From Xenococcaceae cyanobacterium MO_188.B19 (lineage in GTDB: Bacteria; Cyanobacteriota; Cyanobacteriia; Cyanobacteriales; Xenococcaceae): a stretch of DNA of 54,521 bases. Location of the stretch: positions 1-54,521 of the forward strand of contig JASJDF010000002.1 in assembly GCA_030065715.1 (NCBI GenBank), given 5' to 3'. Shown here one piece after another: positions 15,062 through 41,161 of the stretch. Made by a program: the position numbers and the translations under genes. Positions within the stretch are counted from its first letter, which is position 1, and every line of letters starts with the position of its first letter. The notes under the pieces were generated by a model. The model saw nothing but the letters and a program-made list of their open reading frames with translations, did not search any database and had not been told where the DNA came from.

Positions 15062-18000
15062 ATGCTCAGTATCAATACTGTTACTTCAGGTATCAGAGAA
15101 AAAGAAGAATACTATACCGAAGATGAATCCTTAACCCAGTCTAAGGAGAAGTATTATAGTGAGTCTGAATCTCAAGATAAGTCTCAAGCTAAAACTGCTA
15201 CTCAAAATAAAGTCGCTAAACTGACTCAAGCGGTGGCTTATGGCAAAGGTGCAGCCGAATTAGGTTTAACTGGCAGTTTTAGTAAGGAAGATTTCAAATC
15301 TCTGTTTTATGGGTTTAAGCCTGGTTCACAAGAACGGATTAGAGGACATAGACCCAACGGAGACACTCAAGAACGATTGGCAGAAGATTTAACTTTTTCC
15401 GCTCCTAAAAGTGTTTCAATGGCTCTACATCTCAATGGAGACAATAGATTATTTGATGCTCATACTGAAGCTGTTAAATTCGTATTAGATGAAGTAGAAC
15501 AGCGATATATTCAAACTCGGATTCAAGTTAATGGAGAACGTAAAGTTGTTAACACTGGCAACTTAACTGCTGCTTTGATTCCCCACCATACTTCTAGAGA
15601 TGGGGATATGCAGCTTCACACCCATGCAGTAGTTTTCAATGGTACTAAAGGAGCAGATGGCAAATGGCGAGCTTTACACAATGATGCGATCGCTAACCAA
15701 GAATGGCTCGGTCATCTATACCAACAGAAATTAGCCCAGAAAGTGCAGCAATTAGGGTATTCCATCTATGAAACCAAGAATGGTTTTGAGTTAGAAGGTA
15801 TTTCTCCGCATGATATTAAGGTATTCAGTAAACGTTCTGTTGCCATCATTAATCAACTCAAACAGGAAGGAAAAGAAATCAATCATGCTAATCGTGATGA
15901 AGCTGCTTTAACTACTCGTAAAGCTAAAAACATTTCTCAAACCCTTACTGAATACCAACACCATTGGCAACAAGAAGCCAAAGCTAACAAAATCAAAGCT
16001 CCAAAAGCCAAAACCACTCCTGTTGCTCCTTTGGGTAAGAAAACAGCATCTCAACTATTAAATAGTGCCATTGCTCACCTTAATGAAACTTCGGTTTCTT
16101 TGGAGCGAGATGATATCTATAAATACGTTTATCGCTCTGGTATTCAGAATTTTAAGTTATCGGAACTAGACCAAGAAATTAGCACTAATAAAGAACTTCT
16201 GACTCTTAAAAACGATAAATTTACTACTGTTAAAGCCTTACAAAGAGAGATTAAAACCGTTAAGCAATGGATGAAGGGACAGGGTAAGAGATCCCCACTG
16301 TTAGATAATCCGAATCTAGAAGGAACTTTACTCAATTCGGGTCAGAAAGAAGCTATTTCTCGTACTTTAACTTCAACAGATACTCATCAGATTATTCATG
16401 GACTATCTGGAGTTGGTAAAACTACAGCTTTGGGGGTTTTGAGACAACAACTCAAAGGAAGCAAAGTAGAAATTAAAGGTTTTTCTCCTACTATTGAAGC
16501 TGCTGCCAAGTTAGAGTCCGAACTAAAGATTAAAACTAATACTGTGGCTCACTTAGTTCTAAGTAAGCCAGACAATAAACCTCATCAGCTATGGATTATT
16601 GATGAAGCTGGCATGATGAGTGCTAAGGGCGCAACAGCTATTTTAGACAAAGCAGATTCGGTCGGGGCAAGAATACTATTAGTGGGAGACAAAGGACAAA
16701 ATTCTAGTATTGAAGCTGGTAGTCCTTTGAGGTCATTAATCAGTCATGGTGCTACTACTCACAGTATTAGTAAGATTCTGCGTCAACAGAACACTATCCA
16801 AAAGCAAGCTGTAGAATTGATTGCTGAAGGTAATGGTAAATCCGCTTTAGAACTCCTCAACACTCATGGTTATGTCACGGAAATTGAGGATAGAGAAGAA
16901 CGTTCTCAATCTGTAGCCAAGCAATATCTGGAATTATCTGACAAAGAGAGAGAGCAAACCTTAATTGTTACTGGTACTAATAAAGAACGACGAAGCATTA
17001 CTCAAGAGATTAGGAAAGGACTTAAAACCGAAGGGAAACTAGGAGAATCCGTCAAAGCTGTACAATTAGTTTCTCGCAATCTGAGTAAAGAACAATCGAA
17101 GCAAATCAATAACTATGAAACAGGAGACTATATTAAACTCCATCGCGAGTATAAGGGAACTCCCTTACAAAAAGGTAAGCTCTACAAAGTTGAGGGTATA
17201 GAAGGTGAGCATTTACTGCTGAGTTCTCATGGTGGTAGGAATTATCGCTTTGACCCATCTAAATTCAGAGACAAACAAGTTTTTACCTCCGATGAAATTG
17301 AATTGGCTGTAGGGGATCAATTACGTTGGACTGCTGGAGCCGATAAGCATTTGGGTCAAATTAACGGTAAACAAGTAACAGTTACGAACTTTAACTCTAT
17401 GTCTATGAATGTCATGGACAATCAAGGTAAAACCCAGGAAGTATCATTACTCAAGCCTCTGCCGTTAGATTATAATCTCGTTTCTACTTCCTATCGCGCC
17501 CAAGGTAAATCCAAAAAGCGCGTCATTGTTTCTGCCACCTCAGACCCTACTTCTAGTCTCGAACCTTTCTACGTCAAGATATCCCGTCAAACTAAAGATT
17601 TAACCGTTTATACCCAAAACCTGGAAAAACTTAGGAAGTGGGTTGAACACTCTAATGCACAAGAAAATCCTCTCGAATTAATTAAGGAATATTATGACAA
17701 CCAACAAAGAACTCATGACAGCCATCTCTCAGTTAAATCAGCAGAATCAACAAATCAGAGAACGATTGGAGATCATCGAAACCCAGAACTCACAAATCCA
17801 AGAACGGATATTAATCAACAAAGAGCAAGTTCCTTATCTAGTCCAAGACGTACTCAACCAGTTTATCCAACAGTTGACCCAAGCCCTACAGAAACCGAAA
17901 AACAACGAGTTAAACGAATTGATCCAAGAACTAACCAACTCAATTCAGTCTCTTTACAACAAAATTCATTTCTCCAGCTTAATTTATCTCGATACCAAGG

Positions 18001-20017
18001 AGAAAATACAAGAGTTTCGCTCGCAATCACAGAATCACTCTCCTTCAACCGATTAGAAGATTTAGCAACTGCCATTACCAATGCTCAGGCTGAAGATGAA
18101 CTAAGAAATGCCATTTCTGGTGTTAATGTTTATCTCCAAGAATTTGAGCAAAAACTGAAATTAGAAGAACTAGATGCCATTTCTCATGCCCTGGATGAAT
18201 GGCAACTGGGACAACAGTTGGCACATACTATACAAATTGCCGATGAAACAGAACACAAATATCAAGATGTAATACTAGCCAAGATTGAATCGCAGAATAT
18301 CTCTCAACCAGATATACAACAATTGATTAAAGCTATCGAGCAATGGCACACACAACAAGATTTAACTACTGTTATTTCTGGGGCTAGTGAAGCGATCTCT
18401 CATCTTTACGAGCGAATTAATTCCTCTCCTGAATATAAGTTTGAGAATCTAGAACAATTAGCCAATGCCATATCTCAACAACAAGCTAGTGATGTCATAG
18501 CTGAACACCTATCTATTTTCCAAGAAGCATCCAAAGAACTTAAACACACAGTTCAGGAGCAATTAGATCGCTTAATTGATTCTGTCAATATTCATCCTGT
18601 ACTAGCTCAATCCACTAATCCCCAACTCCTTGATTCAGTTTCTTCTTTACGGGAGCAACGTACTAGGAGTGTTTTCTGGCAACCAGAATATCCTGACATT
18701 CTCCCCAGAGATCTAGATACTTACATTGATGAGAAACACTGGTCGGAATTTAAGAAGAGTGCTATTCATCCCGATTTAGTAGTTCTCAATGCTGAAACTA
18801 TTCAGGGTAATGAAGTTTACGAACGTCTCCTCTCTGATAAACTTGCCAAATTAGGTAGCGGTCAAGTAGTTACTCAGCCCATGAAACGAGTCATGATGCG
18901 ATATGACGACGTTGCTGATGGTGGTTGGTGGGGCAATGCTGGTATTGATGCTCTGTCTCTGGTTGATTTAGAGCCTGGTGAAAAACCAGATTATACCGAT
19001 TGGGGTTGTTTCAAACCCGATACTCCCCGTATTGATACTCAAAAGAGTGCCACCCGCAGCACACCAAAATATCGTAAGTATGAAAATCCTGCCAATGCTA
19101 AAAGAGTTCCTTTCTTACCCGATGTAAGCTCGCGCCTGGCTGAGAAGATTTACCAAAAACATGGCATTAATCCCACTGCCGAAGAACGGGAAAGTGGTTT
19201 CTGGTATGTTGTTAAACAATATCCTCAGATTCCTATTACCATTACTGAAGGGTTTAAGAAAACCTTATCTAGTCTATCTCAAGGTGAAGTTACCATCGGT
19301 TTAACGGGTGTTAACCATATTTATCGTTCCACTGATGATGACAAGAAGAAACTAGCCAAACGTCAACTCAATCCCGAAGTAGCTGTTTTTGCCAATCCCG
19401 AAAGAGAATTTAGATTTGCCTATGACCAAGATACCAAGGTTAAAACTATCATTAATGTCCGTCGTGACATGGTTAGGGGTATTGAGTTACTTGAGGAACG
19501 AGGGTGTAACGTTAAAGTACTTAAATGGAATAGTGAAGATGGCAAAGGGTTAGACGATCTAATTTCTCAAGCTGGACCGATAGCTTATGCTGAAGCTCAT
19601 CGCAATGCTGTCTCCTCTGACCTTGACAAGAAAATTCACTATCGTACTGAATATAATAAACTTGCCAAACGAGTCAAAGAAGAACTTGGTGATGATCTTA
19701 GTAGTGAAAGATTAGATTTAGAAGTTTATATTAGGTCAGTCCTCAAGGGTGACAAGGAAGACGGTACTAGAGTTGTTGGTGAATCAGATCAATCTCGTCT
19801 CTTAAAACAAGAAAAACCCCAGATGGTTAAGCCTTACCTTGAAGCCATTTCCCATGTTGCTGGTACTTATAAGAGTCTTAGTGATAAAAATACTCCTAAG
19901 TTGGATTATTGGGCTAAGAAGATGCTTAAACAACAAACAGCTAAATTTAAAGTTAAACAGGATGAAAGGCTGGAAAAACGGAAGATTATCACCAAAAATC
20001 AGGATTTGATTCTTTAA
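15062..20017 (+). CDS. MOBF (TrwC/TraI-type) relaxase fused to a RecD-like helicase and a C-terminal Toprim-like (DUF3854-type) domain
   Basis: 1651-aa ORF. N-terminal paired-Tyr motifs EEYYTED and EKYYSE. His triad HHTSRDGDMQLHTHAVVFN. Helicase motifs GLSGVGKTT, WIIDEAGM, LLVGDKGQ, STSYRAQGKS. Then a low-complexity linker and helical repeats. C-terminal ITITEGFKKT (Toprim Glu), FAYDQDTK (DxD) and GKGLDDL. Confidence 0.9.
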   Translation: MLSINTVTSGIREKEEYYTEDESLTQSKEKYYSESESQDKSQAKTATQNKVAKLTQAVAYGKGAAELGLTGSFSKEDFKSLFYGFKPGSQERIRGHRPNGDTQERLAEDLTFSAPKSVSMALHLNGDNRLFDAHTEAVKFVLDEVEQRYIQTRIQVNGERKVVNTGNLTAALIPHHTSRDGDMQLHTHAVVFNGTKGADGKWRALHNDAIANQEWLGHLYQQKLAQKVQQLGYSIYETKNGFELEGISPHDIKVFSKRSVAIINQLKQEGKEINHANRDEAALTTRKAKNISQTLTEYQHHWQQEAKANKIKAPKAKTTPVAPLGKKTASQLLNSAIAHLNETSVSLERDDIYKYVYRSGIQNFKLSELDQEISTNKELLTLKNDKFTTVKALQREIKTVKQWMKGQGKRSPLLDNPNLEGTLLNSGQKEAISRTLTSTDTHQIIHGLSGVGKTTALGVLRQQLKGSKVEIKGFSPTIEAAAKLESELKIKTNTVAHLVLSKPDNKPHQLWIIDEAGMMSAKGATAILDKADSVGARILLVGDKGQNSSIEAGSPLRSLISHGATTHSISKILRQQNTIQKQAVELIAEGNGKSALELLNTHGYVTEIEDREERSQSVAKQYLELSDKEREQTLIVTGTNKERRSITQEIRKGLKTEGKLGESVKAVQLVSRNLSKEQSKQINNYETGDYIKLHREYKGTPLQKGKLYKVEGIEGEHLLLSSHGGRNYRFDPSKFRDKQVFTSDEIELAVGDQLRWTAGADKHLGQINGKQVTVTNFNSMSMNVMDNQGKTQEVSLLKPLPLDYNLVSTSYRAQGKSKKRVIVSATSDPTSSLEPFYVKISRQTKDLTVYTQNLEKLRKWVEHSNAQENPLELIKEYYDNQQRTHDSHLSVKSAESTNQRTIGDHRNPELTNPRTDINQQRASSLSSPRRTQPVYPTVDPSPTETEKQRVKRIDPRTNQLNSVSLQQNSFLQLNLSRYQGENTRVSLAITESLSFNRLEDLATAITNAQAEDELRNAISGVNVYLQEFEQKLKLEELDAISHALDEWQLGQQLAHTIQIADETEHKYQDVILAKIESQNISQPDIQQLIKAIEQWHTQQDLTTVISGASEAISHLYERINSSPEYKFENLEQLANAISQQQASDVIAEHLSIFQEASKELKHTVQEQLDRLIDSVNIHPVLAQSTNPQLLDSVSSLREQRTRSVFWQPEYPDILPRDLDTYIDEKHWSEFKKSAIHPDLVVLNAETIQGNEVYERLLSDKLAKLGSGQVVTQPMKRVMMRYDDVADGGWWGNAGIDALSLVDLEPGEKPDYTDWGCFKPDTPRIDTQKSATRSTPKYRKYENPANAKRVPFLPDVSSRLAEKIYQKHGINPTAEERESGFWYVVKQYPQIPITITEGFKKTLSSLSQGEVTIGLTGVNHIYRSTDDDKKKLAKRQLNPEVAVFANPEREFRFAYDQDTKVKTIINVRRDMVRGIELLEERGCNVKVLKWNSEDGKGLDDLISQAGPIAYAEAHRNAVSSDLDKKIHYRTEYNKLAKRVKEELGDDLSSERLDLEVYIRSVLKGDKEDGTRVVGESDQSRLLKQEKPQMVKPYLEAISHVAGTYKSLSDKNTPKLDYWAKKMLKQQTAKFKVKQDERLEKRKIITKNQDLIL

Positions 20018-21182
20018 AGTCAAGTTCATTTGATTTTTCCTGGTTTGGGAATTGTTGCCGTGATAAAGACTTTTGAGACATCCTTAATTTGACTTGAGCT
20101 TGAGTTATTACTGCTTTTTCTGCCATTTTTCCCTGACCTCGCTCTGCCAATTTTCGATACTCTGGATCGTGATTTTTCATCATTTCAGTTACTATTTCTC
20201 TATCCATCCCCTCACTCAGAGCATTCATTGCCATCTTCTGAGAACCTGCCAAACCTATTTCTCTAACTTCTTGAGAGTAAGATTCATACAAGTTCTTTTG
20301 CGCCAGTCGCAGGAAATCCTGACGATTATATTTGACCAAATCCTTGGCAAACTCTCTTTCTATGGGGGTAATGTGAGAATCTGGAACTGAGTTAATAATC
20401 TCATCAATAGTATCAGGGGTAAGCTTATTGGCTTGTCTTAACCAAGTGACTGCTGCGGAGGGTCTTAACTTCATCATCTTACCAACCAAATCCCGATGAT
20501 ATTCATTAAAGTATGATGTCTGGGTGGTCATATACTTCTGAGGAGTCAAGTCTGGTTCGTTTGCCAAACGACCTGCAATAGTCATTCCAAAACTCATCCC
20601 ATTGTCAAATAATGGGGCTAAACTCTTATTGCCATTACTATCTACCCCGATTTCCCAATTTTTCCCATGTCTATCCTGATTAGCAATTAAACCATCGAAG
20701 ATAATTTGACCAGTCCACAAATCTAAACCATCGTTGATGTTATCGGGAGGCTCATAATTGGGAGGTAACTCAATATTATTTTCAGCGATAAAGTTGGTTT
20801 CTTCGTTGAAATTGTAAGGATAGTGACCCAACTGTTGAAAAATTACTGCTTCTGATTCTTGGTATGAAAGACCTTCTTGTTTGTAGTTAATGGTAATGAT
20901 CCCAGGCGCATTAGCATTTGACTCGAATGTTTCAGATAAGACAGCCAATTCATAACGAGCCATAGGAAGTTGCATGAGTTTTCCTATCTCATAAGCTACT
21001 TTTTCCGTCCAGTTTTTTCCATAGGGTCTATCTAATTTAACCAAACTCTTTCCCAACTGGGGATGGTTGACCCAAAACTTGGTCAAAAGACCTTGAAACT
21101 CTCGTCTATCTAGCTTTCCAGCCCTTCTGAGATCGGGAGTAATTTCAAAAACAGGATATATGGTCATTGATTTTTTTAACAA
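19989..21182 (-). CDS. HipA-family Ser/Thr kinase-like protein lacking the HipA N-terminal subdomain, with a C-terminal ~90-aa helical extension
   Basis: 397-aa ORF. Catalytic-loop motif LIANQDRHGKNWEI and Mg-binding-like LAPLFDNGMSFG (HipA_C-type). The 3' end overlaps the relaxase 3' end convergently by 29 nt. The 5' end overlaps the upstream ORF by 7 nt. Confidence 0.75.
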   Translation of the reverse strand: MLKKSMTIYPVFEITPDLRRAGKLDRREFQGLLTKFWVNHPQLGKSLVKLDRPYGKNWTEKVAYEIGKLMQLPMARYELAVLSETFESNANAPGIITINYKQEGLSYQESEAVIFQQLGHYPYNFNEETNFIAENNIELPPNYEPPDNINDGLDLWTGQIIFDGLIANQDRHGKNWEIGVDSNGNKSLAPLFDNGMSFGMTIAGRLANEPDLTPQKYMTTQTSYFNEYHRDLVGKMMKLRPSAAVTWLRQANKLTPDTIDEIINSVPDSHITPIEREFAKDLVKYNRQDFLRLAQKNLYESYSQEVREIGLAGSQKMAMNALSEGMDREIVTEMMKNHDPEYRKLAERGQGKMAEKAVITQAQVKLRMSQKSLSRQQFPNQEKSNELDFKESNPDFW

Positions 21183-21931
21183 GGCATGGAATTTAAGGGA
21201 AGGAGAAACGGGTGAGAATACAAGGTTTTATTTTCAATTGGTTCAATTTCACATTTAAGCAACAACCAACCACCATAAAGAGAATCTTGGCGATTAATTT
21301 GAGCTATACTTAGAGTCACATTTTTAACAGGACACTGACTCAAGAAAAAGTGAACATAATCAGGACAGTAACCGATGTGCAAATCCTGGCATAAAATTTT
21401 AGTCCGCTCAACATCAGTTTCAATAGTGAGTAATTCTTTTCCTGTTACATTATCCGCGAACTCTTTGACTCCTGGTTTATTGTCTTTAATGAAGTAAGCA
21501 ATATCATCACAAAGAAAATAAAATTCATAATTCCCATCTTTATTGGGAGCAACTTCAGGGAAGAAATCATAATCGTCGTTGTTTCTTCTTCCTAAACTCC
21601 GAGATAGATAAGTTATGGTGTCTCTTTTCCCTTTAGCTTCAGGAATCCCCAGAAAATCGTAGAGGTCTAGAGTATCGGGACGATGGGGAATACGGTTAAT
21701 TAGATTTGGACTTAATTGAGTTAAGTGCCAAAGTTTTTTATAACCAGCATCGGGGTTAAAAATCATCGAACGCAATCTCTGATAATTCGCCTCAAAGCCT
21801 TTGGTATAAGAGTAATAATAATTACCTTGACCATCCCAACTAATACGATAAATGGGAACCCATTGCTGTGGTAATTCTGGATCACTCTCACGCCAACCCA
21901 TGTACAAAGCCTTAATTTCTCTAGTTTCCAT
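21176..21931 (-). CDS. HIRAN-type domain protein with an N-terminal domain resembling the HipA N-terminal (HipS-like) pattern
   Basis: 251-aa ORF. WVPIYRISWDG..YYYSYTKGF, LSPNLINRIPHRPD, ITYLSRSLGRRNNDDYDFFPE and C-terminal IGYCPDYV match, from memory, a bacterial family annotated as HIRAN domain-containing. Translationally coupled to the kinase gene. Confidence 0.5.
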   Translation of the reverse strand: METREIKALYMGWRESDPELPQQWVPIYRISWDGQGNYYYSYTKGFEANYQRLRSMIFNPDAGYKKLWHLTQLSPNLINRIPHRPDTLDLYDFLGIPEAKGKRDTITYLSRSLGRRNNDDYDFFPEVAPNKDGNYEFYFLCDDIAYFIKDNKPGVKEFADNVTGKELLTIETDVERTKILCQDLHIGYCPDYVHFFLSQCPVKNVTLSIAQINRQDSLYGGWLLLKCEIEPIENKTLYSHPFLLPLNSMPC

Positions 21932-21946
21932 AGCTAGTTAAATTTA

Positions 21947-22591
21947 TCAAATGAAGATATAAATACTTTCTGGATTTGTCACAGCTTCGTCAAAATCAGT
22001 TTTGGTTGCCAAGTCAAAATTACGGTTTTTGGCATATTCCATAATTTCATCCATTTCACATCGAGCAGTCCGCCAAGTTTCTTCTACTGCTTCCAAAGCC
22101 ACATCCAAACCTATTTCACTGGCAAAATCAAAACAGTCAACAATAGTTTTCGGAATATTGTATATTTTTACTGGAATTCCTTCAATTATATGGGTTTCAA
22201 TTCCTTGCTCATAAATTGATTCGGGCATATAAACCACTTTTACGGGTAGAGAAGAATCTTGAGGATAAGATGAACCTTCAGGCAAAGCAATCCAAACTTC
22301 CCCTGGTAATTGAGTGGTAATACCATGAAATCTCAAAGCACTAGCTAGACAAACTACCGCTTTGGGAAAACTTACAGCTACTTCTACAAAACTGTGCCAT
22401 GTTTGAAAATCAGCATTTTCAGGCATATAAATTCCTTTAGCAGAAGGATAAAGTACTCCTGAATCTACTAATTTCTCAATTTGAACTTGATTCGCCCCTA
22501 TAGCCAAAATTTCAGTTTCAGTTAAAACACTTTTCCTTTCTCCCAAGCTATAAATGATTGATTTTAATTTTTGGTTAGTTATTTGATTCAT
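21947..22591 (-). CDS. AbiEi-like (type IV TA antitoxin family) winged-HTH regulator
   Basis: 214-aa ORF. LTETEILAIGANQVQIEKLVDSGVLYPSAKGIYMP followed by AVVCLASALRFHGITTQLPGEVWIALP matches the AbiEi N-terminal wHTH plus conserved SAL..HG.T pattern. Ends 15 nt upstream of the next gene. Confidence 0.65.
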   Translation of the reverse strand: MNQITNQKLKSIIYSLGERKSVLTETEILAIGANQVQIEKLVDSGVLYPSAKGIYMPENADFQTWHSFVEVAVSFPKAVVCLASALRFHGITTQLPGEVWIALPEGSSYPQDSSLPVKVVYMPESIYEQGIETHIIEGIPVKIYNIPKTIVDCFDFASEIGLDVALEAVEETWRTARCEMDEIMEYAKNRNFDLATKTDFDEAVTNPESIYIFI

Positions 22592-22706
22592 TTATGAACA
22601 AAGTTTTACTCTATCATCGGGATATTTTTGACAGATTTTGCTTCTGTCATTTTGCTTAATTTATTGAACTTGAAATGTGCGATCGCTTTTATTATACGCC
22701 ACTTTT

Positions 22707-22746
22707 TTATCAATTTGTTGACATTTTAACTTATCAATCTTGAACA
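22707..22746. promoter_or_regulatory. direct repeats in the promoter region of the AbiEi-like operon
   Basis: TTATCAATTTGTTGACA (22707-22723) and TTATCAATCTTGAACA (22731-22746), period 24 nt, 115-155 nt upstream of the AbiEi-like start codon. Confidence 0.35.
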
Positions 22747-22775
22747 GCGATCGATAGTAACATTCCTAGCAAAAA

Positions 22776-23219
22776 TCAATCAAAAGAAGTCGGGCTAAAA
22801 TCTGCCTTCCACTCCCCATCTTTCCGATACAAATCAAGATAATTACCTGACCAACTTCCATCGTTATAATCAATACTATATTTTAATTTGACAAATTCTT
22901 TCCCCATTAATATCCTTTTTTTAGAAAAATACTTAATCCCACCTTTTTGTTTTATGACATTATGTTTCTTAGACAAAGTTGAAGTGATATTCCGATTAGT
23001 AAAATGTCTAATACTGCTAGAGGTAAAAAACTTTAATGTTTGATCAATATCACCTTGTTCTATTAGTTTTATCAATTGTTCAGCTTTTTTCTCTGGATTT
23101 TGTGTTAGACAACCAGCATAAGCAACACAATTATGTATCGTCTCAAAATCTGTATTACAACCAGAAATCATAATACAACTACTCAGAAGAACTGTTAGGA
23201 TTGTTTTTCTTTGTTTCAT
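22776..23219 (-). CDS. small lipoprotein (possible entry-exclusion or surface factor)
   Basis: 147-aa ORF with lipobox LLSSCIMISGC. Located at the distal end of the transfer operon. The function is inferred from position only. Confidence 0.5.
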   Translation of the reverse strand: MKQRKTILTVLLSSCIMISGCNTDFETIHNCVAYAGCLTQNPEKKAEQLIKLIEQGDIDQTLKFFTSSSIRHFTNRNITSTLSKKHNVIKQKGGIKYFSKKRILMGKEFVKLKYSIDYNDGSWSGNYLDLYRKDGEWKADFSPTSFD

Positions 23220-23325
23220 TTTTCTTGAGCTTATAATTGTAAATCAAAATCTAATTCCTAGCGCCATCTTAACTATATAGTCTTGTAAGATTGCACTAAA
23301 TTAGGGGTATAAAAAGTTAGTAACT

Positions 23326-24069
23326 TTACATCAACAAAGATGATGCTTTTTCTTGGCTCAACTTTTGTTGTTGTTTCAAGTTAGATAATTTCACCTGTGC
23401 TTGTGCATTAGTAACTATTTGAGCGAGACTTTTATTGGCTAATCGCTCAGTGTTGGTTTTTGTGAGCATTATATAGCCAGAATCCTGACTTTTGAGCATA
23501 TTGGTCACATTTTCATGACTTACACCATCTTGTAAAGCATTCTTCGCAGTTTCTCTAGTTTTATCTAATCCTTTCGATTTAACATCTTTGGAGTAGCGAT
23601 CATACATTTCCTTAGCATCTGGATCTGGAGTATCCAGTTCTACTTTGGCTGATTGCTCTACCAAACGAGCTTTATCAATGAGAACTTTGCCATCTTTTAT
23701 ATGAAGCAGAGTTTTACCCCCCAAAGTTATCTTCATCGAGCCGTCGAAAGAGGCGGGATTCTTCAAAGCTTGTTTGATTAAATCTGCCTGTTTATCCGAG
23801 ATATTGGTGTTTTTTTGGTTAATATCACCATTTTTCATGCCGAAGACAGTTCGTCGATTGATGGAAATTTCCAGACGGTCTATGTTAATACCACTTTGAT
23901 CTAGTTTGCTAGCCAGACTTAAAGCATACTCTTCGGCTTTAGCTGAATGTCCCAAGTTTAGTTGAGATTCTGACTCTTTTTTAATTGGCTGAGGAGTAAT
24001 CTCCGACTCTTCTTTTTTGAGTTTAACTGCTGAATTGGTACTTGATTCTTGACCTTTTTCTTGAGACAT
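23326..24069 (-). CDS. hypothetical protein carrying the C-terminal helical module shared with the HipA-like kinase
   Basis: 247-aa ORF. C-terminal YDRYSKDVKSKGLDKTRETAKNALQDGVSHENVTNMLKSQDSGY...NAQAQVKL aligns with YESYSQEVREIGLAGSQKMAMNALSEGMDREIVTEMMKNHDPEY...TQAQVKL of 19989-21182. Confidence 0.55.
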   Translation of the reverse strand: MSQEKGQESSTNSAVKLKKEESEITPQPIKKESESQLNLGHSAKAEEYALSLASKLDQSGINIDRLEISINRRTVFGMKNGDINQKNTNISDKQADLIKQALKNPASFDGSMKITLGGKTLLHIKDGKVLIDKARLVEQSAKVELDTPDPDAKEMYDRYSKDVKSKGLDKTRETAKNALQDGVSHENVTNMLKSQDSGYIMLTKTNTERLANKSLAQIVTNAQAQVKLSNLKQQQKLSQEKASSLLM

Positions 24070-24078
24070 GATTTTCTC

Positions 24079-24450
24079 CTAAAGTGTTTTTTCCAAAGTT
24101 TTTTGTTGAGTTTTAGCAATGCCAGGATTTCTAGCTACAGCTTCTTCTATTTGTCCTTTTTTAAAGACTAGATTGGCGTATTTATCCACATCCCTGCCCA
24201 TAGCTTTCAGTCTCTTAGCTACAGGACTTTGTTTGATGGTCTTGATAATTTCCGATTTAGGAACCCCTTGTGCGATCGCTTTTTGAGCTTGCTTGACATC
24301 ATTTTTAGTTGAACTAATTTCAATTTTGGCTTTGGGTTTAATCCCCGATGCTATGGTTTCTACAACAGTCGAAGTAATTGATACTGATTTAACTACTACA
24401 TCTTCAACTTTATTTAGTAAGCTTTGAGTTGCTTGATCGTATTCAGACAT
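24079..24450 (-). CDS. hypothetical small protein with a weaker copy of the same helical module
   Basis: 123-aa ORF. AQKAIAQGVPKSEIIKTIKQSPVAKRL resembles the A.NAL..G...E.V..M.K core. Lies 15 nt downstream of the coupling-protein gene. Confidence 0.5.
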   Translation of the reverse strand: MSEYDQATQSLLNKVEDVVVKSVSITSTVVETIASGIKPKAKIEISSTKNDVKQAQKAIAQGVPKSEIIKTIKQSPVAKRLKAMGRDVDKYANLVFKKGQIEEAVARNPGIAKTQQKTLEKTL

Positions 24451-24465
24451 ATTGCTATTTCTCCT

Positions 24466-26169
24466 TTACGCATAAGTTGCTGCGTAAGCTTCCTGTTCTT
24501 GTTCACTTGGCAGCATTACTTCTGCCATTATTTGACGATTCATTCTTTCTACTTCTAGAGTTGTGTCTTTCAACAAATTTTCAAACTGCTGTCTCAGGAT
24601 AGGAAGCATTTTTTTATCCCATGCCATTTCACATCTTTTCCATAAGCGATCATTCCTTTTGTTAATCCAGACTTTCAATTTACGAGGACGATACTTATAA
24701 CTAGGACTTAAAATTACACATTCTCCTTGTCCCATTCGATTTATTTTGTCTCCTGTGATTAAGGGGGTTTTTTGTAAATGCTCCGTAGTATTTTTGGAGC
24801 TATTTTTTCCTGTTGAACGAGATTGAGTTTTATACCAAACATCTTTTTCTCCCAATGACTGAGCAAATTTATTGGCGGTTTCTGGATGACCTGTATTGAA
24901 GACTACTTTAGTTCCACAACTTGATAACATGGCATCTGCATCATCTCTAGTGTATTTTTTGACTACTTGAGAATTAGATTGATACCCCAATGCCATAAAC
25001 ATTCCATATTCCGCATTTCGATTAATCCACGATTCTGCATCTGGCAGCTTAATTGAGGTAAATTCATCTAGGAACAGTCCCAGTGTCCGTTCTCTTTTGA
25101 CTTTGGCATTGAGGTTTCGCATCATTAGCATATGTATCGCCATTGCTACTAATGGTGCGGTGGCAGCTTGATTTTCCTCGTCTATTTGGAAGAATACTAT
25201 TTGTTTTCCTGTTAGGTCTAGTGGAATGGTACTTTTTAACAGACAGGGCATGATGGACTTATCTACCAAATTCTGAAAATGAGTTACCGCACTTCCGACG
25301 ATCCCTGCTGATGTTGGTGCTGAACCACTGACTGACCTCAATCCTACTGCTGCTTCTCCTGTCCAAGAACTTATATCTACATCATTAAATTGACCATTCC
25401 TTTGCGCTCTGTCTAATCTAATGGCTAAATCTGGTAAGGTTAAAAACTTCCATGCCGATACTAAATCTGGAAATGGTGACTCTTTGCCTAACATAAATAC
25501 TGTCTTTAACAGTGCAATTCCTTGGGGTGAGAAGAAACTATCTTTTCTAGCTCCTGGTTCGCCAAAATTCTGTTCTAGTACTCTCGCCATTTCATAAGCT
25601 GCCTTAGCATCGTCCGCATCTTTCATGAAGTCGAGAAAATTTAGCCCATCACTGTAATCGAATCCTGGTGCATAAACATAACAATCGTAACCCTGAGATA
25701 GTGCATAGGCTGCGTGTTTTCTCATCAAGTTTCCTTTGACATCAAACACCAGCATCGTCCACTCTTGTTCTATACCTGACTTAATAGCTGGGTCAATGAA
25801 GGAGCGAGTCTTTCCTGCGCGAGATCTTCCTACTATAGATATGGCTGGCTGTAAATCACTTAAGACTAATCCTCTCTCTAATTCTAGAGCTACTTTATTG
25901 GGTTTCTGTTGCCTTATTTGTTTTCTACCTCGCTTAGTTCCTGCCCTTATTTCTCCCCCAGTCGCCCATCTGACATCACTTAGTTTTTTTCTATTACCTT
26001 GACTCAACAAGGACAACATTGCTAGTAGTACCATTAGCCCAAAATACCCCATAAACATGGGATTGGCTAATGGCTCTATAACTGGGGCAAATATTTCTTC
26101 TAATCCTACCTGCTGCTGACTTGAAGAGGCTTTAATATCTGTCATGATATGCCCCCATTCCTCCGCCAC
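24466..26169 (-). CDS. virD4: type IV coupling protein (VirD4/TraG/TraD family)
   Basis: 567-aa ORF. N-terminal TM (FMGYFGLMVLLAMLSLL), Walker A VGRSRAGKTRS, Walker B LGLFLDEFTS. The track start is a GTG. An ATG at 26145 preceded by GGAGGA is the more likely start. Confidence 0.85.
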   Translation of the reverse strand: MAEEWGHIMTDIKASSSQQQVGLEEIFAPVIEPLANPMFMGYFGLMVLLAMLSLLSQGNRKKLSDVRWATGGEIRAGTKRGRKQIRQQKPNKVALELERGLVLSDLQPAISIVGRSRAGKTRSFIDPAIKSGIEQEWTMLVFDVKGNLMRKHAAYALSQGYDCYVYAPGFDYSDGLNFLDFMKDADDAKAAYEMARVLEQNFGEPGARKDSFFSPQGIALLKTVFMLGKESPFPDLVSAWKFLTLPDLAIRLDRAQRNGQFNDVDISSWTGEAAVGLRSVSGSAPTSAGIVGSAVTHFQNLVDKSIMPCLLKSTIPLDLTGKQIVFFQIDEENQAATAPLVAMAIHMLMMRNLNAKVKRERTLGLFLDEFTSIKLPDAESWINRNAEYGMFMALGYQSNSQVVKKYTRDDADAMLSSCGTKVVFNTGHPETANKFAQSLGEKDVWYKTQSRSTGKNSSKNTTEHLQKTPLITGDKINRMGQGECVILSPSYKYRPRKLKVWINKRNDRLWKRCEMAWDKKMLPILRQQFENLLKDTTLEVERMNRQIMAEVMLPSEQEQEAYAATYA

Positions 26170-39399: not shown

Positions 39400-39963
39400 A
39401 TGTATGTAGGTTACGGAATTGTTACAAAGCACGAGCTTTCGATGGTTTACAACAGTCTTAATAATTTTGGTTGCCATCAAATTTTCACTGACGACCTCGA
39501 TAAAAATTCTAAATCCCAATCCAAGTTCAAAAAAGCTTTGTCTAAACTCAAATCCAATGACATTCTCGTCATTAATCAAATCGACCATCTCGGCACTAAC
39601 AATCATTCTTTAATTTCCAACCTCGATCTTTTAGTTCATAAAAAAGTTCATCTACGGGTTTTAGAAGATGATATCTTGCTTTGTTGGGATACTTCCGCTC
39701 ATATTACTTTGCTTCAAATTCTGAAGAAATTTCAGCATCAAAAAAATCAATCCCAAACTATGGCTCGTCAACAAACTTTCTCACAGACTGGGAAAAAACC
39801 TGGTCGTCGTCCCAAAATCGATTCTGGCAAACGCAAACTTATTGAAACTCTTATCGCTGCTAACTACACTGTTGATGAGATTTGCCGACAGGTTGGTATT
39901 TGCCGAGGTACTTTTTATAAATATTTTCCTGTTTCCCAAAATGCTAAGAGCCAAGAGGCTTGA
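39400..39963 (+). CDS. serine-recombinase (resolvase/invertase) homolog with degenerate catalytic motifs, probably only a DNA-binding protein
   Basis: 187-aa ORF. YVGYGIVTKHE aligns with the canonical GYARVSTxDQ, so Arg becomes Ile and the catalytic Ser becomes Thr. D..SG becomes DDLDKN. DRLGR becomes DHLGT. The C-terminal HTH is intact (YTVDEICRQVGICRGTFYKYF). Confidence 0.6.
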   Translation: MYVGYGIVTKHELSMVYNSLNNFGCHQIFTDDLDKNSKSQSKFKKALSKLKSNDILVINQIDHLGTNNHSLISNLDLLVHKKVHLRVLEDDILLCWDTSAHITLLQILKKFQHQKNQSQTMARQQTFSQTGKKPGRRPKIDSGKRKLIETLIAANYTVDEICRQVGICRGTFYKYFPVSQNAKSQEA

Positions 39964-41161
39964 AGATTGGCAAGAATTAGTTGCTCAACTCCGAAATACT
40001 CCCCTATTAGAAGTAATAGAGCCTCTGGGATTACAACCAGACAAATATGATCTGCACAAATATAAAAGTGATGCTCATATCATTACTATTACTGGAGAAC
40101 GCTTTTACGATCATCTCAATCTCAAAGGTGGTGGTGGTGCTATCGATCTTGTGATGCACGTTAATGGCTCTAACTTTAAGGATGCTGTAGATTGGCTTAA
40201 TGGTTCTGCCATTAGCCTCAGCACCTCTATTTCCAAGCAGCCTGCTCAACCTAGAACTATATGCGGAGCGGTATCCTTTAGGATCAAGCCAGAGGTTAAA
40301 AAAGAACCATTTACTCCTCCAAAAGTAGATGAATCTAAATGGTTAGCAGTCAAAGAATATCTTGTAGCTAAACGAGGCTTACCCACATCTATAGTTAATG
40401 AGCTTCATCATAATGGCACTGTTTATGCTGATGACAAGCAAAATGCTGTCTTTATTAGGAAGAGTCTTGATGACAAAATTACTGGAGCTTCTTTAAGAGG
40501 TACTTATAAAGGTAGTAAATTTAATAAATTAGCCAAAGGTACTGAACGGAGTGCTGGTTGGTTCACTTACGTCAATGGCACAGGAGAACCAGAACGAATA
40601 GTTTTAACTGAATCTCCTATTGATTCTCTATCTGCTGCTGCTGTGTCCCAAAGACCTGAGACTACTTTGTTTATCTCTACCGATGGCTCTGGTTCAATCC
40701 CTGAAGCCTATTTACAGCAACAGCTAGAGCAAGGTAAACAAATTCTCGTTGCCTATGACAATGATCAAGCTGGGGAAATCATGGCACAGAAGGTTTTGGA
40801 TAAATTACCTGGTGCTGTTAGAGTTAAACCCACCATCGGTAAAGACTGGAACGAACAACTCATTAACTCTCAAATCCAAGAAATAGCTCAAACTGTTCAA
40901 ACAGTCCTGAATAAATATGGTGAAGCTTCTCTTACTAACGATTCCGTCTCCTTTGAAGGTAATAGGCTTATTTTCTCTAGTAATAATGATTCACTTAATA
41001 TTTACTCTAAATCTAGAGATAAGGTTGTTTTTGCCATAAATTCGGCTAAAAACAGTGTTTTTAATGACCTCAATTTATCAGAGAAACAAATACTGGAAAG
41101 ACTTAAATATCATCCTACGGTGGTGCAGAAACAGCAAAGGGGAATTGACCTTAGTAGATAA
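39941..41161 (+). CDS. DUF3991-type / Toprim domain protein (conjugative primase-like)
   Basis: The track ORF starts at 39842, but the conserved sequence starts at MLRAKRLEDW (ATG 39941). GGGGAIDLVMHV region, Toprim Glu in LTESPIDSLSAA, DxD in VAYDNDQAG. Confidence 0.7.
   Translation: MLRAKRLEDWQELVAQLRNTPLLEVIEPLGLQPDKYDLHKYKSDAHIITITGERFYDHLNLKGGGGAIDLVMHVNGSNFKDAVDWLNGSAISLSTSISKQPAQPRTICGAVSFRIKPEVKKEPFTPPKVDESKWLAVKEYLVAKRGLPTSIVNELHHNGTVYADDKQNAVFIRKSLDDKITGASLRGTYKGSKFNKLAKGTERSAGWFTYVNGTGEPERIVLTESPIDSLSAAAVSQRPETTLFISTDGSGSIPEAYLQQQLEQGKQILVAYDNDQAGEIMAQKVLDKLPGAVRVKPTIGKDWNEQLINSQIQEIAQTVQTVLNKYGEASLTNDSVSFEGNRLIFSSNNDSLNIYSKSRDKVVFAINSAKNSVFNDLNLSEKQILERLKYHPTVVQKQQRGIDLSR

Follow-up and report, generated by a model that had tools for sequence, protein, structure and literature searches.

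The window analysed here, a 54,521-nt stretch of contig JASJDF010000002.1 from Xenococcaceae cyanobacterium MO_188.B19, contains three co-oriented minus-strand ORFs at 21947-22591 (214 aa), 21176-21931 (251 aa) and 19989-21182 (397 aa in its longest-ORF form), and these encode an AbiEi-like protein, a two-domain middle protein and a kinase, respectively. The features of the locus are:

15062..20017, plus strand: TrwC relaxase - SF1 helicase - DUF3854 fusion gene (Pfam)
19992..20297, minus strand: kinase C-terminal add-on, ~residues 291-392 (kinase stop codon 19989-19991)
20298..21167, minus strand: kinase core (HipI/CtkA-like Ser/Thr), ~residues 1-290 (PADLOC PDC-M03A, HipA_C and CtkA profile matches)
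21176-21931, minus strand: middle gene, hipN-like, 251 aa (stop codon 21176-21178)
21179..21541, minus strand: HIRAN-like C-domain, ~residues 131-251 of the middle protein (family Pfam HIRAN, 3k2y, Foldseek)
21542..21931, minus strand: HipS-like N-domain, ~residues 1-130 of the middle protein (AF2 and Foldseek, Couple_hipA matches in the family)
21947..22591, minus strand: abiEi-like gene (wHTH N-domain and C-domain), 214 aa (PADLOC AbiEi PDLC02265, 1.1e-59)
22592..22775, minus strand: intergenic region upstream of abiEi, presumed operon promoter/operator (conserved block 22705-22753)
23326..24069, minus strand: 247-aa protein with a kinase-type C-terminal module (BLASTP E=4e-15; tail HMM 1.1e-35)

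A first-pass annotation had described the three ORFs as one packed operon with a 15-nt gap and a 7-nt overlap. The gap between the abiEi-like gene and the middle gene (21932-21946) stands, but the apparent overlap (21176-21182) is an artefact that arose because an upstream TTG had been taken as the kinase start. The ATG at 21167 is the start in public gene calls and in all homologues, with an N-terminus of MTIYP.. in the window and MTTYPIY.. or MTYPIF.. in the homologues, and gives a kinase of 392 aa with an 8-nt spacer after the middle gene stop codon. This spacer is also 8 nt in L001, the most syntenic of the related loci, is 5 nt in L002, and ranges from 5 to 10 nt across all loci of the clade. 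At its 3' end the kinase gene overlaps a convergent 1651-aa ORF (15062-20017) by 29 nt, and since this ORF matches Pfam TrwC (4.6e-72), AAA_30 (6.4e-50) and DUF3854 (2.5e-43), the kinase gene does abut the relaxase gene of a T4SS cluster, as had been noted.

The HipA_C-type motifs quoted previously, IANQDRHGKNW (D165/R166/H167/N170) and APLFDNG (D188/G190), were present in the kinase, and these six residues, together with G26, K30, W32 and K44, are invariant in an alignment of nine diverged kinases with 22-77% identity. We assigned the Gly-rich loop to G26-K30, the conserved lysine to Lys44, the catalytic residues to D165/N170 and the Mg-binding residue to D188. PADLOC PDC-M03A matched residues 6-294 of the kinase against positions 2-302 of the 305 in the model (5.2e-45), and Pfam HipA_C was also detected (1.8e-5), although at 24.9 bits this lies under the gathering score of 30.5. 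As originally proposed, and on the basis of the PDC-M03A match and the alignment, ORF3 is a HipA-superfamily kinase without the HipA N-subdomain-1, and its core begins at residue 1. However, by sequence it is not HipT-like: using the family profile, its nearest solved relative was CtkA (3akj; 1.6e-13), aligned between profile positions 54-303 and chain residues 55-301, whereas the same profile gave only marginal E-values for HipT (0.08-0.45) and HipA (0.25).

Foldseek analysis of an AF2 model of the middle protein (pLDDT 94.7, pTM 0.91) placed two Legionella HipS chains, 8ezr_A (prob 0.97, TM 0.70 on target) and 7vkb_B, at PDB ranks 1 and 2, with an E-value that is weak for HipS (0.08). Pfam Couple_hipA matches 13 of the 52 family members (best 3.5e-7) and Pfam HIRAN 27 of the 52 (best 2.2e-14); the window protein itself has no Pfam match to either, while PADLOC PDC-M03B matches it over residues 6-231 (1.2e-21). 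The N-terminal half is thus HipS-like, in agreement with the initial reading, and is predicted to be the kinase-neutralising part. The C-terminal half is HIRAN-related, as shown by the match of the family profile to PDB 3k2y (E=0.0034) and by a domain-only model (pLDDT 94.0) whose sole confident Foldseek matches were Rad5 6l8n (prob 0.97) and HLTF HIRAN 4xzg_G (prob 0.77, TM only 0.41), the E-values for HIRAN being weak as well (0.03-0.4). Its suggested function as a DNA-end sensor is doubtful, because in the alignment the (D/E)xxNPxDxxA loop of HIRAN, with the NPxD element that binds 3' ends, is deleted in the window clade, where the fold is retained, and because Pfam HIRAN is not matched.

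A system of such composition had been thought undescribed, but the pair of ORF2 and ORF3 corresponds to candidate modules that are already catalogued. Gerdes, Baerentsen & Brodersen (2021, mBio) defined hipIN as a short core kinase, HipI, with a putative antitoxin, HipN, which is a HipS-like and HIRAN protein, and reported these modules to be rare (14/1,239) and to include a Proteobacteria/Cyanobacteria subclade (PMC8262856). Likewise, PADLOC lists PDC-M03 as a phage-defence candidate (Payne et al. 2024 preprint, 10.1101/2024.01.29.577857), a two-gene system that combines a HIRAN-domain protein with a HipA protein and was defined from genes lying inside BREX, DISARM or type I RM loci. Both are candidate systems known from bioinformatic description. 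As in PDC-M03, the window genes are adjacent and both proteins match the HMM sets near full length; unlike PDC-M03, the pair travels as cargo on a conjugative element, with AbiEi in front, and the model match is moderate (1e-21 for B). In comparison with hipIN, the hipN-like gene comes first in the window, whereas the kinase gene is first in that paper and also in the Carboxydothermus and Nostoc examples, the kinase is longer (392 versus 279-321 aa) because of its C-terminal add-on, the middle protein is without the HIRAN NPxD loop, and AbiEi is encoded upstream as a third gene.

Wherever a related locus extends far enough to include both genes, they are neighbours in the order found in the window. 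The family of the pair is rare, with 82 clusters in 1.84 billion representatives. Transfer-type genes in the window encode the TrwC relaxase, a T4CP (24466-26169; Pfam T4SS-DNA_transf 3.1e-32), a VirB4-like protein and an M23 peptidase, the relaxase-kinase arrangement is repeated in L001 and L006, and the elements that hold relatives of the pair have ParAB, integrase or relaxase genes. The cyanobacterial conjugative element of the window carries the pair as cargo, at its relaxase end.

The AbiEi assignment of the first ORF was upheld, with the PDLC02265 match covering its full length (residues 11-190 against model positions 5-184 of 198), although Pfam AbiEi_4 gave just E=0.3. AbiEi is, however, no conserved component of the module and is an accessory first cistron: of the ten distinct related lineages whose upstream DNA could be read, two have it and eight, L001 included, do not, and it is therefore dispensable for the middle gene-kinase pair. 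Conservation of the triad was thus confined to the window and one more diverged lineage (L006/L013), while the pair remained adjacent throughout. In L006 the AbiEi, 60% identical to that of the window, is encoded directly upstream of the orthologous pair, its gene overlapping the middle gene by 11 nt, and AbiEi is intact and full length in both lineages. The spacing in both is tight enough for translational coupling. Between these two lineages the kinases share ~70% identity, and since the L006 middle protein is nearer to that of the AbiEi-less L001 (84%) than to that of the window (70.5%), the two are not sisters. Relative to L001 the window holds a 1.4-kb replacement (21932-23356) consisting of abiEi and an unrelated lipoprotein gene, and homology to L001 stops exactly at the start codon of the middle gene.

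Upstream of abiEi, a 50-nt block (window 22753-22705) is 84% identical (E=2e-9) to positions 227-276 of L018, a locus without abiEi in which the block is immediately followed by the middle gene. This sharing of a promoter-like block with an AbiEi-less locus indicates one transcription unit, and its placement is as expected if abiEi were an optional first cistron of one operon. The same intergenic region (22592..22775) also carries a 19-nt imperfect direct repeat and HIP1-based inverted repeats, which are statistically not compelling.

AbiE is a type IV toxin-antitoxin (TA) or abortive infection system formed by AbiEi and AbiEii, in which the AbiEi subfamily normally autoregulates and neutralises the AbiEii nucleotidyltransferase. 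On plasmids of Scytonema and Oscillatoria, the subfamily to which the window AbiEi belongs stands ahead of canonical AbiEii, and in the window a full-length AbiEi occupies the same promoter-proximal position, but AbiEii (DUF1814) was missing among the window ORFs tested and the HipN-like and kinase genes are in its place. As in HipBST, for which E. coli O127:H6 HipBST and Legionella pneumophila HipS-HipT (PDB 7ab3/7ab4, 8ezr, 7vkb) were the comparators, N-subdomain-1 is absent from the kinase, its fold is provided by a distinct protein encoded just upstream, and a DNA-binding protein is encoded as the first cistron. Unlike HipBST, this regulator is a two-domain AbiEi wHTH protein and not of the Cro/C1 type of HipB, and the HipS-like part is joined in one protein with a HIRAN-like domain.

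Taken together, the core is probably a two-gene kinase TA or abortive-infection candidate of the hipIN/PDC-M03 kind, carried by a conjugative element and with AbiEi as autorepressor. Because hipIN and PDC-M03 members are themselves still candidates, the toxic and antitoxic roles are proposed by analogy with HipBST. As with HipA and HipT, the kinase would be expected to phosphorylate an essential translation factor and so stop growth, while the 251-aa protein would supply the missing N-subdomain in trans, its HipS-like N-domain binding and neutralising the kinase as HipS does HipT, and its HIRAN-like domain would be a degenerate appendage through which release may formerly have been linked to DNA ends. 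In the window and one other lineage, abiEi would have replaced the promoter-proximal DNA that belonged to the module, to be co-transcribed as first cistron with the pair, with AbiEi most likely acting as a DNA-binding autorepressor of the operon, the HipB role in hipBST, and the outcome would be that two TA families have exchanged toxin cassettes.

It is unlikely that AbiEi is instead an independent passenger, either an abiE remnant without AbiEii or an orphan antitoxin directed against a recipient AbiEii as anti-defence, with its position before the kinase pair an accident of cargo shuffling. Its patchy occurrence in non-sister lineages and its arrival with an unrelated lipoprotein gene would suit a passenger, as would the orphan AbiEi on other cyanobacterial plasmids, for example beside TnpB in Gloeothece PCC 7822. 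However, the triad has been kept with tight spacing in two lineages that have diverged in all three proteins, which argues for selection on the linkage, and both the intact AbiEi and the promoter-like block common to an AbiEi-less locus also speak against a passenger. Counting against the TA reading of the pair itself are the sequence of the kinase, which resembles CtkA, a protein not known to act as a TA toxin, far more than HipT or HipA, and the ~100-aa kinase tail, which a simple TA model does not account for. Both would suit a kinase that is a substrate of the element's own T4SS, delivered like CtkA to recipient or neighbour cells in conjugation, which we regard as unlikely. Here the C-terminal module would be a translocation or coupling-protein recognition signal and the HipN-like protein a donor-side inhibitor or chaperone, and an immunity factor after establishment; this is compatible with TA behaviour, for instance if the element arrives together with its antidote. 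The gene for CtkA (JHP0940) resembles the window kinase gene in its position, as it lies at the relaxase end of the Helicobacter pylori tfs3 integrative conjugative element (ICE), but the described activity of CtkA is on human cells, and the CtkA literature covered reports no HipS- or HIRAN-like partner, unlike the window kinase. The C-terminal 27 aa of CtkA are common to the unrelated ICE proteins PZ39 and Fic, and its cell effect requires both this tail and VirB9 (PMC5536186).

The add-on of the window kinase consists of a conserved ~75-aa module, with no Pfam match, followed by a variable Q/K/S-rich end. This tail recurs at the C-terminus of the 247-aa ORF at 23326-24069 (35% identity, E=4e-15 by BLASTP; tail HMM 1.1e-35), two genes downstream of the T4CP gene, and related elements have it on a FolD-like enzyme as well as on proteins without known function. 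It is absent from canonical hipIN kinases of 308-312 aa, which are not shown beside T4SS genes, and in several relatives the C-terminus is a basic cluster (..NRGRSL, ..RKRQR, ..NKRQKTL). [quoted passage not shown] Furthermore, in L002-L005 the tail is found on ParAB/integrase contigs with no T4SS genes in the 6-18 kb visible, and a common tail could equally reflect a recombination hot-spot or a common partner-binding domain. The sharing of this module with another transfer-region protein, and the position of the pair, which in the window, L001 and L006 alike lies between the relaxase gene and genes near the T4CP gene, would also fit a regulatory kinase and modulator of transfer or establishment, phosphorylating for example relaxosome or T4SS components, but we consider this highly improbable. 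The pair also lies away from visible transfer genes (L002-L005, L019), forms tandem duplicates in L009, and is listed by PADLOC owing to its embedding in defence loci, and these are the habits of TA or defence cargo and not of a core transfer regulator.

The three minus-strand ORFs between 19989 and 22591 are packed in operon-like fashion, and the ORF list reproduced all of them at the positions proposed in the first-pass annotation, including the 15-nt gap between the first and second. However, the proposed 7-nt overlap between the second and third depends on a TTG start (19989-21182, 397 aa), whereas public gene calls give a 392-aa product and an ATG at 21167, or its equivalent, is the start in every kinase homologue (MTIYP.. 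versus MTTYPIY.. and MTYPIF..). With this ATG the spacer is 8 nt, compared with 8 nt in L001, the most syntenic related locus, and 5 nt in L002, one of the closest plasmid-like relatives. The genes concerned are:

21947-22591, minus strand, first cistron, abiEi-like (214 aa)
21176-21931, minus strand, middle gene (251 aa)
19989-21167, minus strand, kinase gene (392 aa)
15062-20017, convergent with the kinase gene, relaxase gene (1651 aa)
23326-24069, ORF of 247 aa, two genes downstream of the gene for the T4SS coupling protein (T4CP, 24466-26169)

As first proposed, the kinase gene is convergent with the relaxase gene, with a 29-nt overlap at the end of the latter, which Pfam resolves as a TrwC relaxase/SF1 helicase/DUF3854 fusion. 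A T4CP, an M23 peptidase and a VirB4-like ATPase are encoded upstream of the module (Pfam) and, together with the relaxase, place it at the relaxase end of a conjugative element. The DUF3854 domain of the relaxase is C-terminal and Toprim-like, and DUF3854 fused to VapE-like or DnaG-like domains also adjoins hipIN-type pairs in L009, another related locus, and in Carboxydothermus (L011).

The kinase matched the PADLOC model PDC-M03A (PDLC04344) at 5.2e-45, with residues 6-294 aligned to positions 2-302 of 305, and nine M03A models matched in all. The Pfam HipA_C match (1.8e-5, 24.9 bits) lay under the 30.5 cut-off and began at profile position 37 and residue 59, and the NCBIfam scan of all three window proteins gave no match; Pfam and NCBIfam are nearly blind to these proteins, and PADLOC and family-level scans were needed. 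Across nine kinases of 22-77% identity, G26, K30, W32, K44, E55/K56, D165/R166/H167/N170 and D188/G190 are invariant, with residues 26-32 equivalent to the Gly-rich loop. All four conserved hipIN kinase motifs are present and N-subdomain-1 is absent, in agreement with the earlier description of a kinase without the HipA N-terminal subdomain, and judging by these residues the protein looks active as an enzyme. The kinase family profile matched Helicobacter pylori CtkA (3akj_A) at E=1.6e-13 across the kinase core, with profile positions 54-303 aligned to chain positions 55-301 (~250 residues), while HipT and HipA matches (E=0.08-0.45; HipT(Lp), E=0.084; 7ab3/7ab4 HipT chains, E=0.44-0.45) were confined to the catalytic-loop area. 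Single-sequence and shallow-profile PDB sequence searches with the middle protein and the kinase returned noise only. The extent of the CtkA match relative to those of HipT and HipA thus argues for a member of the HipA superfamily that is not a HipT (clade III) kinase. Of the HipBST-like split kinase originally proposed, the missing N-subdomain-1 therefore stands and the HipT identity does not.

The middle protein matched PDC-M03B (PDLC04347, 1.2e-21; residues 6-231 against model positions 4-227 of 245), its gene adjoining that of the kinase, but gave no Pfam match, including to HIRAN (PF08797) at E<=1. Its family is rare, with only 82 clusters found among 1.84 billion representatives in an exhaustive profile search. 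Word-indexed homologue searches recovered no more than 5-9 relatives each, also when a profile of 52 sequences was used, and profile scans of genome contigs with the middle-protein and AbiEi alignments, and one scan of viral contigs, found no relative. At family level the two halves become recognisable: among 52 full-length members, Pfam HIRAN was found in 27 (best 2.2e-14) and Couple_hipA, the HipA N-terminal domain, in 13 (best 3.5e-7), and the family profile matched the HIRAN-like PDB entry 3k2y (E=0.0034). The window protein was modelled confidently with AlphaFold from the family alignment (pLDDT 94.7, pTM 0.91), and the top two Foldseek matches of the model in the PDB were the HipS chains of the Legionella HipS-HipT complexes, 8ezr_A (probability 0.97, target TM 0.70, E=0.08) and 7vkb_B. 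Modelled apart, residues 126-251 (pLDDT 94.0) gave only two confident matches, HIRAN-containing Rad5 (6l8n; probability 0.97, E=0.028) and the HLTF HIRAN domain (4xzg_G; probability 0.77, TM 0.41, rmsd 3.8 over 88 columns). Together, the family-level Pfam, profile and Foldseek matches support the division into a HipS-like N-half and a C-half with a probable HIRAN-type beta-barrel that the first-pass annotation had drawn from raw sequence; indeed its observation was essentially correct and its domain interpretation good.

The functional role it gave the HIRAN part is weaker. A (D/E)xxNPxDxxA loop is kept in canonical members of the family, for example the Nostoc UHCC 0926 pn5 protein, but the alignment shows that the window clade and roughly half of the family have lost it by deletion. 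In HLTF-DNA structures this NPxD loop contributes Tyr93 and Asp94, the residues that grip the 3'-OH end of the DNA. Gerdes et al. also use such motifs as their criterion for DNA binding (PMC8262856). The deletion leaves the proposed DNA-end sensor weak in the window clade and argues against DNA-end sensing as the trigger.

We found the earlier claim that no system of this composition had been described to be overstated, as the core corresponds to hipIN/PDC-M03. The hipIN modules, a HipI kinase with HipN, were defined by Gerdes, Baerentsen & Brodersen in 2021, including a Proteobacteria/Cyanobacteria subclade (PMC8262856), and number 14 of the 1,239 modules in that study. PDC-M03 is one of 145 PADLOC "phage defence candidates", a set drawn from genes lying within BREX, DISARM or type I RM loci, and is described by users as a HipA protein plus a HIRAN protein; in the window the kinase matches its A model and the adjoining middle protein its B model. 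Furthermore, a 2025 NAR paper reports a HipA and HIRAN pair adjoining diDNase genes in Actinobacteria. The two-gene combination of HipA-like kinase and HIRAN protein is therefore already known, although from bioinformatics only.

The window pair resembles hipIN in its core-only Hip kinase with four motifs and, at family level, in its HipS-like and HIRAN partner, the window copy of which lies under Pfam detection. However, its kinase is 392 aa long (381-406 aa in its clade) compared with 279-321 aa, and hipIN is bicistronic with the kinase gene upstream of hipN, whereas the window operon is tricistronic with the hipN-like gene before the kinase. The latter order is found in all loci of the window clade, while kinase-first order occurs in Carboxydothermus (a 312-aa kinase, then a 247-aa Couple_hipA and HIRAN protein) and in Nostoc UHCC 0926 pn5. 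HipBST differs in its first gene, which is HipB with a Cro/C1-type HTH rather than AbiEi, and in its HipT kinase. HipS is a stand-alone protein of ~100 aa homologous to HipA N-subdomain-1; the window HipS-like domain matches it in fold, with sequence similarity detectable only via family members, and is fused to a further 120 aa. What is new here is a sub-lineage with reversed gene order, a degenerate HIRAN domain and a kinase tail common to other element proteins, to which two lineages add AbiEi as first cistron in place of AbiEii.

That the first ORF is AbiEi-like was upheld by PADLOC (PDLC02265, 1.1e-59; model positions 5-184 of 198), covering both the wHTH N-domain and the C-domain as in type IV AbiE systems, with Pfam AbiEi_4 reaching E=0.3. 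No Cro/C1-type HTH was found in it (Pfam HTH_3/HTH_31). Its closest plasmid relatives are from Gloeothece, Scytonema and Oscillatoria, and on Scytonema and Oscillatoria acuminata plasmids the same AbiEi subfamily is followed by canonical AbiEii (6.4e-115 and annotated). In the window, however, the next genes downstream encode PDC-M03B and PDC-M03A, with no AbiEii (DUF1814) there or among 20 other window ORFs scanned. The simplest reading of these gene orders would be a cassette swap, the HipN-like/kinase pair having taken the place of AbiEii. We found no description in the literature of AbiEi paired with a Hip kinase.

While the pair itself recurs across related loci, its linkage to AbiEi is sporadic but conserved. 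Among the loci compared, the triad is present only in the window and in L006/L013, where AbiEi (200 aa, 7.6e-52) is 60% identical to that of the window and its gene overlaps the middle gene by 11 nt. AbiEi is absent upstream in L002-L005, L009/L010, L015, L016, L018, L019/L020 and even L001, in which T4CP, a 123-aa gene, a 255-aa gene, the pair and a convergent relaxase are retained, the middle protein being 71% and the kinase 77-78% identical to those of the window. AbiEi is thus not a conserved third gene across these loci. A cryptic AbiEi upstream of the pair was considered for L002, L009, L015, L016, L018 and L019 and rejected, as PADLOC found none; the genes there encode PDC-M21A/B, an integrase, a FolD-like protein or proteins of unknown identity. 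Between L006 and AbiEi-less L001 the middle proteins share 84% identity, compared with 70.5% between L006 and the window. As the two AbiEi-bearing lineages are not sisters, the linkage would be either ancestral and repeatedly lost, or gained twice.

Comparison of the window with L001 by blastn showed homology from 21931 downstream (78.7%) and from 23357 upstream (76%), with 1.4 kb in the window (21932-23356), holding abiEi and a lipoprotein gene, in place of 133 bp in L001. The break falls exactly at the start codon of the middle gene, which suggests cassette exchange at gene boundaries. This segment has a lower GC content (0.33), and its predicted lipoprotein gene (22776-23219, 147 aa) has weak DUF4878 similarity. 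Upstream of abiEi, a 50-nt block (22705-22753) shares 84% identity with the DNA that immediately precedes the middle gene in L018, a locus lacking AbiEi. This is consistent with a single promoter ahead of an operon in which abiEi is an optional first gene. The stretch 22656-22744 contains a TATAAT-like hexamer flanked by HIP1-centred inverted repeats and by two imperfect direct repeats of 19 nt, which are 79% identical and 70 nt apart; all these repeats may be operator sites, but they are short two-copy matches and indistinguishable from chance. Consensus scans for promoters and terminators over 19800-23400 performed no better than on shuffled sequence. The HIP1 octamer GCGATCGC, with 13 occurrences compared with 0.08 expected, and the plasmid relatives of its AbiEi mark the window as cyanobacterial.

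By analogy with HipA and HipBST biology, the kinase would phosphorylate a translation factor and so arrest growth, it would itself be neutralised by the HipS-like domain, and AbiEi would autoregulate the operon, as HipB does in hipBST. We consider this reading as a whole reasonably probable. That AbiEi is instead an independent passenger or an anti-defence orphan appears unlikely: its absence from most related loci would suit such a role, and its recurrence as first cistron in two lineages would suit a regulator. The proposed swap would be a clean case in which recombination joined a regulator or antitoxin cassette from one TA family to the toxin cassette of a second, and bears on the modularity of TA and defence operons and on whether AbiEi could act as a generic autorepressor. 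Any tractable example of hipIN/PDC-M03 could reveal if neutralisation of kinases by HipS-like domains extends beyond HipBST and what function the appended HIRAN domain has, and the window clade provides natural contrasts for this (with and without AbiEi, the HIRAN NPxD loop or the kinase tail, and in both gene orders).

The main competing explanation comes from this tail. Residues ~291-392 of the kinase (window 19992-20297) lie beyond the kinase core and share 35% identity (E=4e-15) with the C-terminus of the 247-aa ORF product, whose C-terminal part is encoded at 23326-23790. An HMM of the module, of ~75 conserved residues (lY..YSq.V..kGLa...eiA.nAL..Gv..e.V..M.k..D..Y.kL), also matched the kinases of L001, L002, L006 and L015, as well as a FolD-like enzyme (Pfam THF_DHG_CYH_C, 1.2e-22) and 255- and 284-aa proteins of unknown function from related elements; the module has no Pfam match. 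The 123-aa ORF at 24079-24450 was rejected as a carrier (BLASTP E=73). Elsewhere the module falls within:

L015, 3712-4908, tail module
L015, 706-1560, tail module
L001, 5121-5888, tail module

In the H. pylori tfs3 ICE, the last ~27 residues of CtkA are common to the unrelated proteins PZ39 and Fic and are a proposed T4SS signal, and deletion of this tail or of virB9 abolishes the effect of CtkA on host cells (PMC5536186). Window kinase and CtkA thus each carry a C-terminal module common to unrelated proteins of their element, and this, with the kinship of their cores, points to the window module as a candidate signal for T4SS substrates of cyanobacterial conjugative elements. On this basis the kinase could be a T4SS effector, an alternative not fully exclusive with growth arrest under HipS-like control. 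However, its extreme C-terminus is not basic and the module far exceeds known signals in length, and we regard an effector role as rather unlikely. A transfer-regulatory kinase, which residence beside the relaxase might suggest, seems very improbable.

A bolder combination, of doubtful standing, is that the kinase, the 247-aa ORF product, the FolD-like enzyme and others are module-marked cargo exported via the T4SS, with the kinase injected into recipients, the HipN-like antidote encoded on the incoming DNA and AbiEi setting the expression level. If true, conjugation would be coupled to a mechanism of 'poison first, antidote with the element' that enforces establishment, and H. pylori CtkA would join a broader, ancient class of conjugation-delivered Hip-like kinases. 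To our knowledge, effector translocation in cyanobacterial conjugative elements is essentially unexplored.

Several related arrangements were also observed. A conjugative plasmid of Oscillatoria nigro-viridis PCC 7112 (pOSC7112.02; L024, 2508-4238) encodes a canonical HIRAN/PDC-M03B protein (1e-102), and the preceding 285-aa ORF has no PADLOC kinase model match; this HIRAN protein may represent an orphan HipN, or else have a partner that escapes recognition. In L002 (4568-5744, 8467-8694) the pair lies back to back with PDC-M21A/B, whose B protein is weakly AbiEii-like, with a 75-aa protein giving a short 'AbiEi' model match (6.8e-29) ~550 nt downstream, in a small defence/TA island between ParAB and an integrase. 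In the window itself, a 439-aa ORF (39842-41161) weakly matched the PADLOC 'RTasDnaG-like' DRT model (4.3e-8, 40 residues) and may be further defence-related or primase-like cargo. Finally, two consecutive HipN-like/kinase pairs lie in tandem in L009 (4541-8432) and also in L010, and L015 (4911-7496) has two HipN-like genes followed by a single kinase; in these arrays the second copies have diverged far from the window protein (E about 1e-16).
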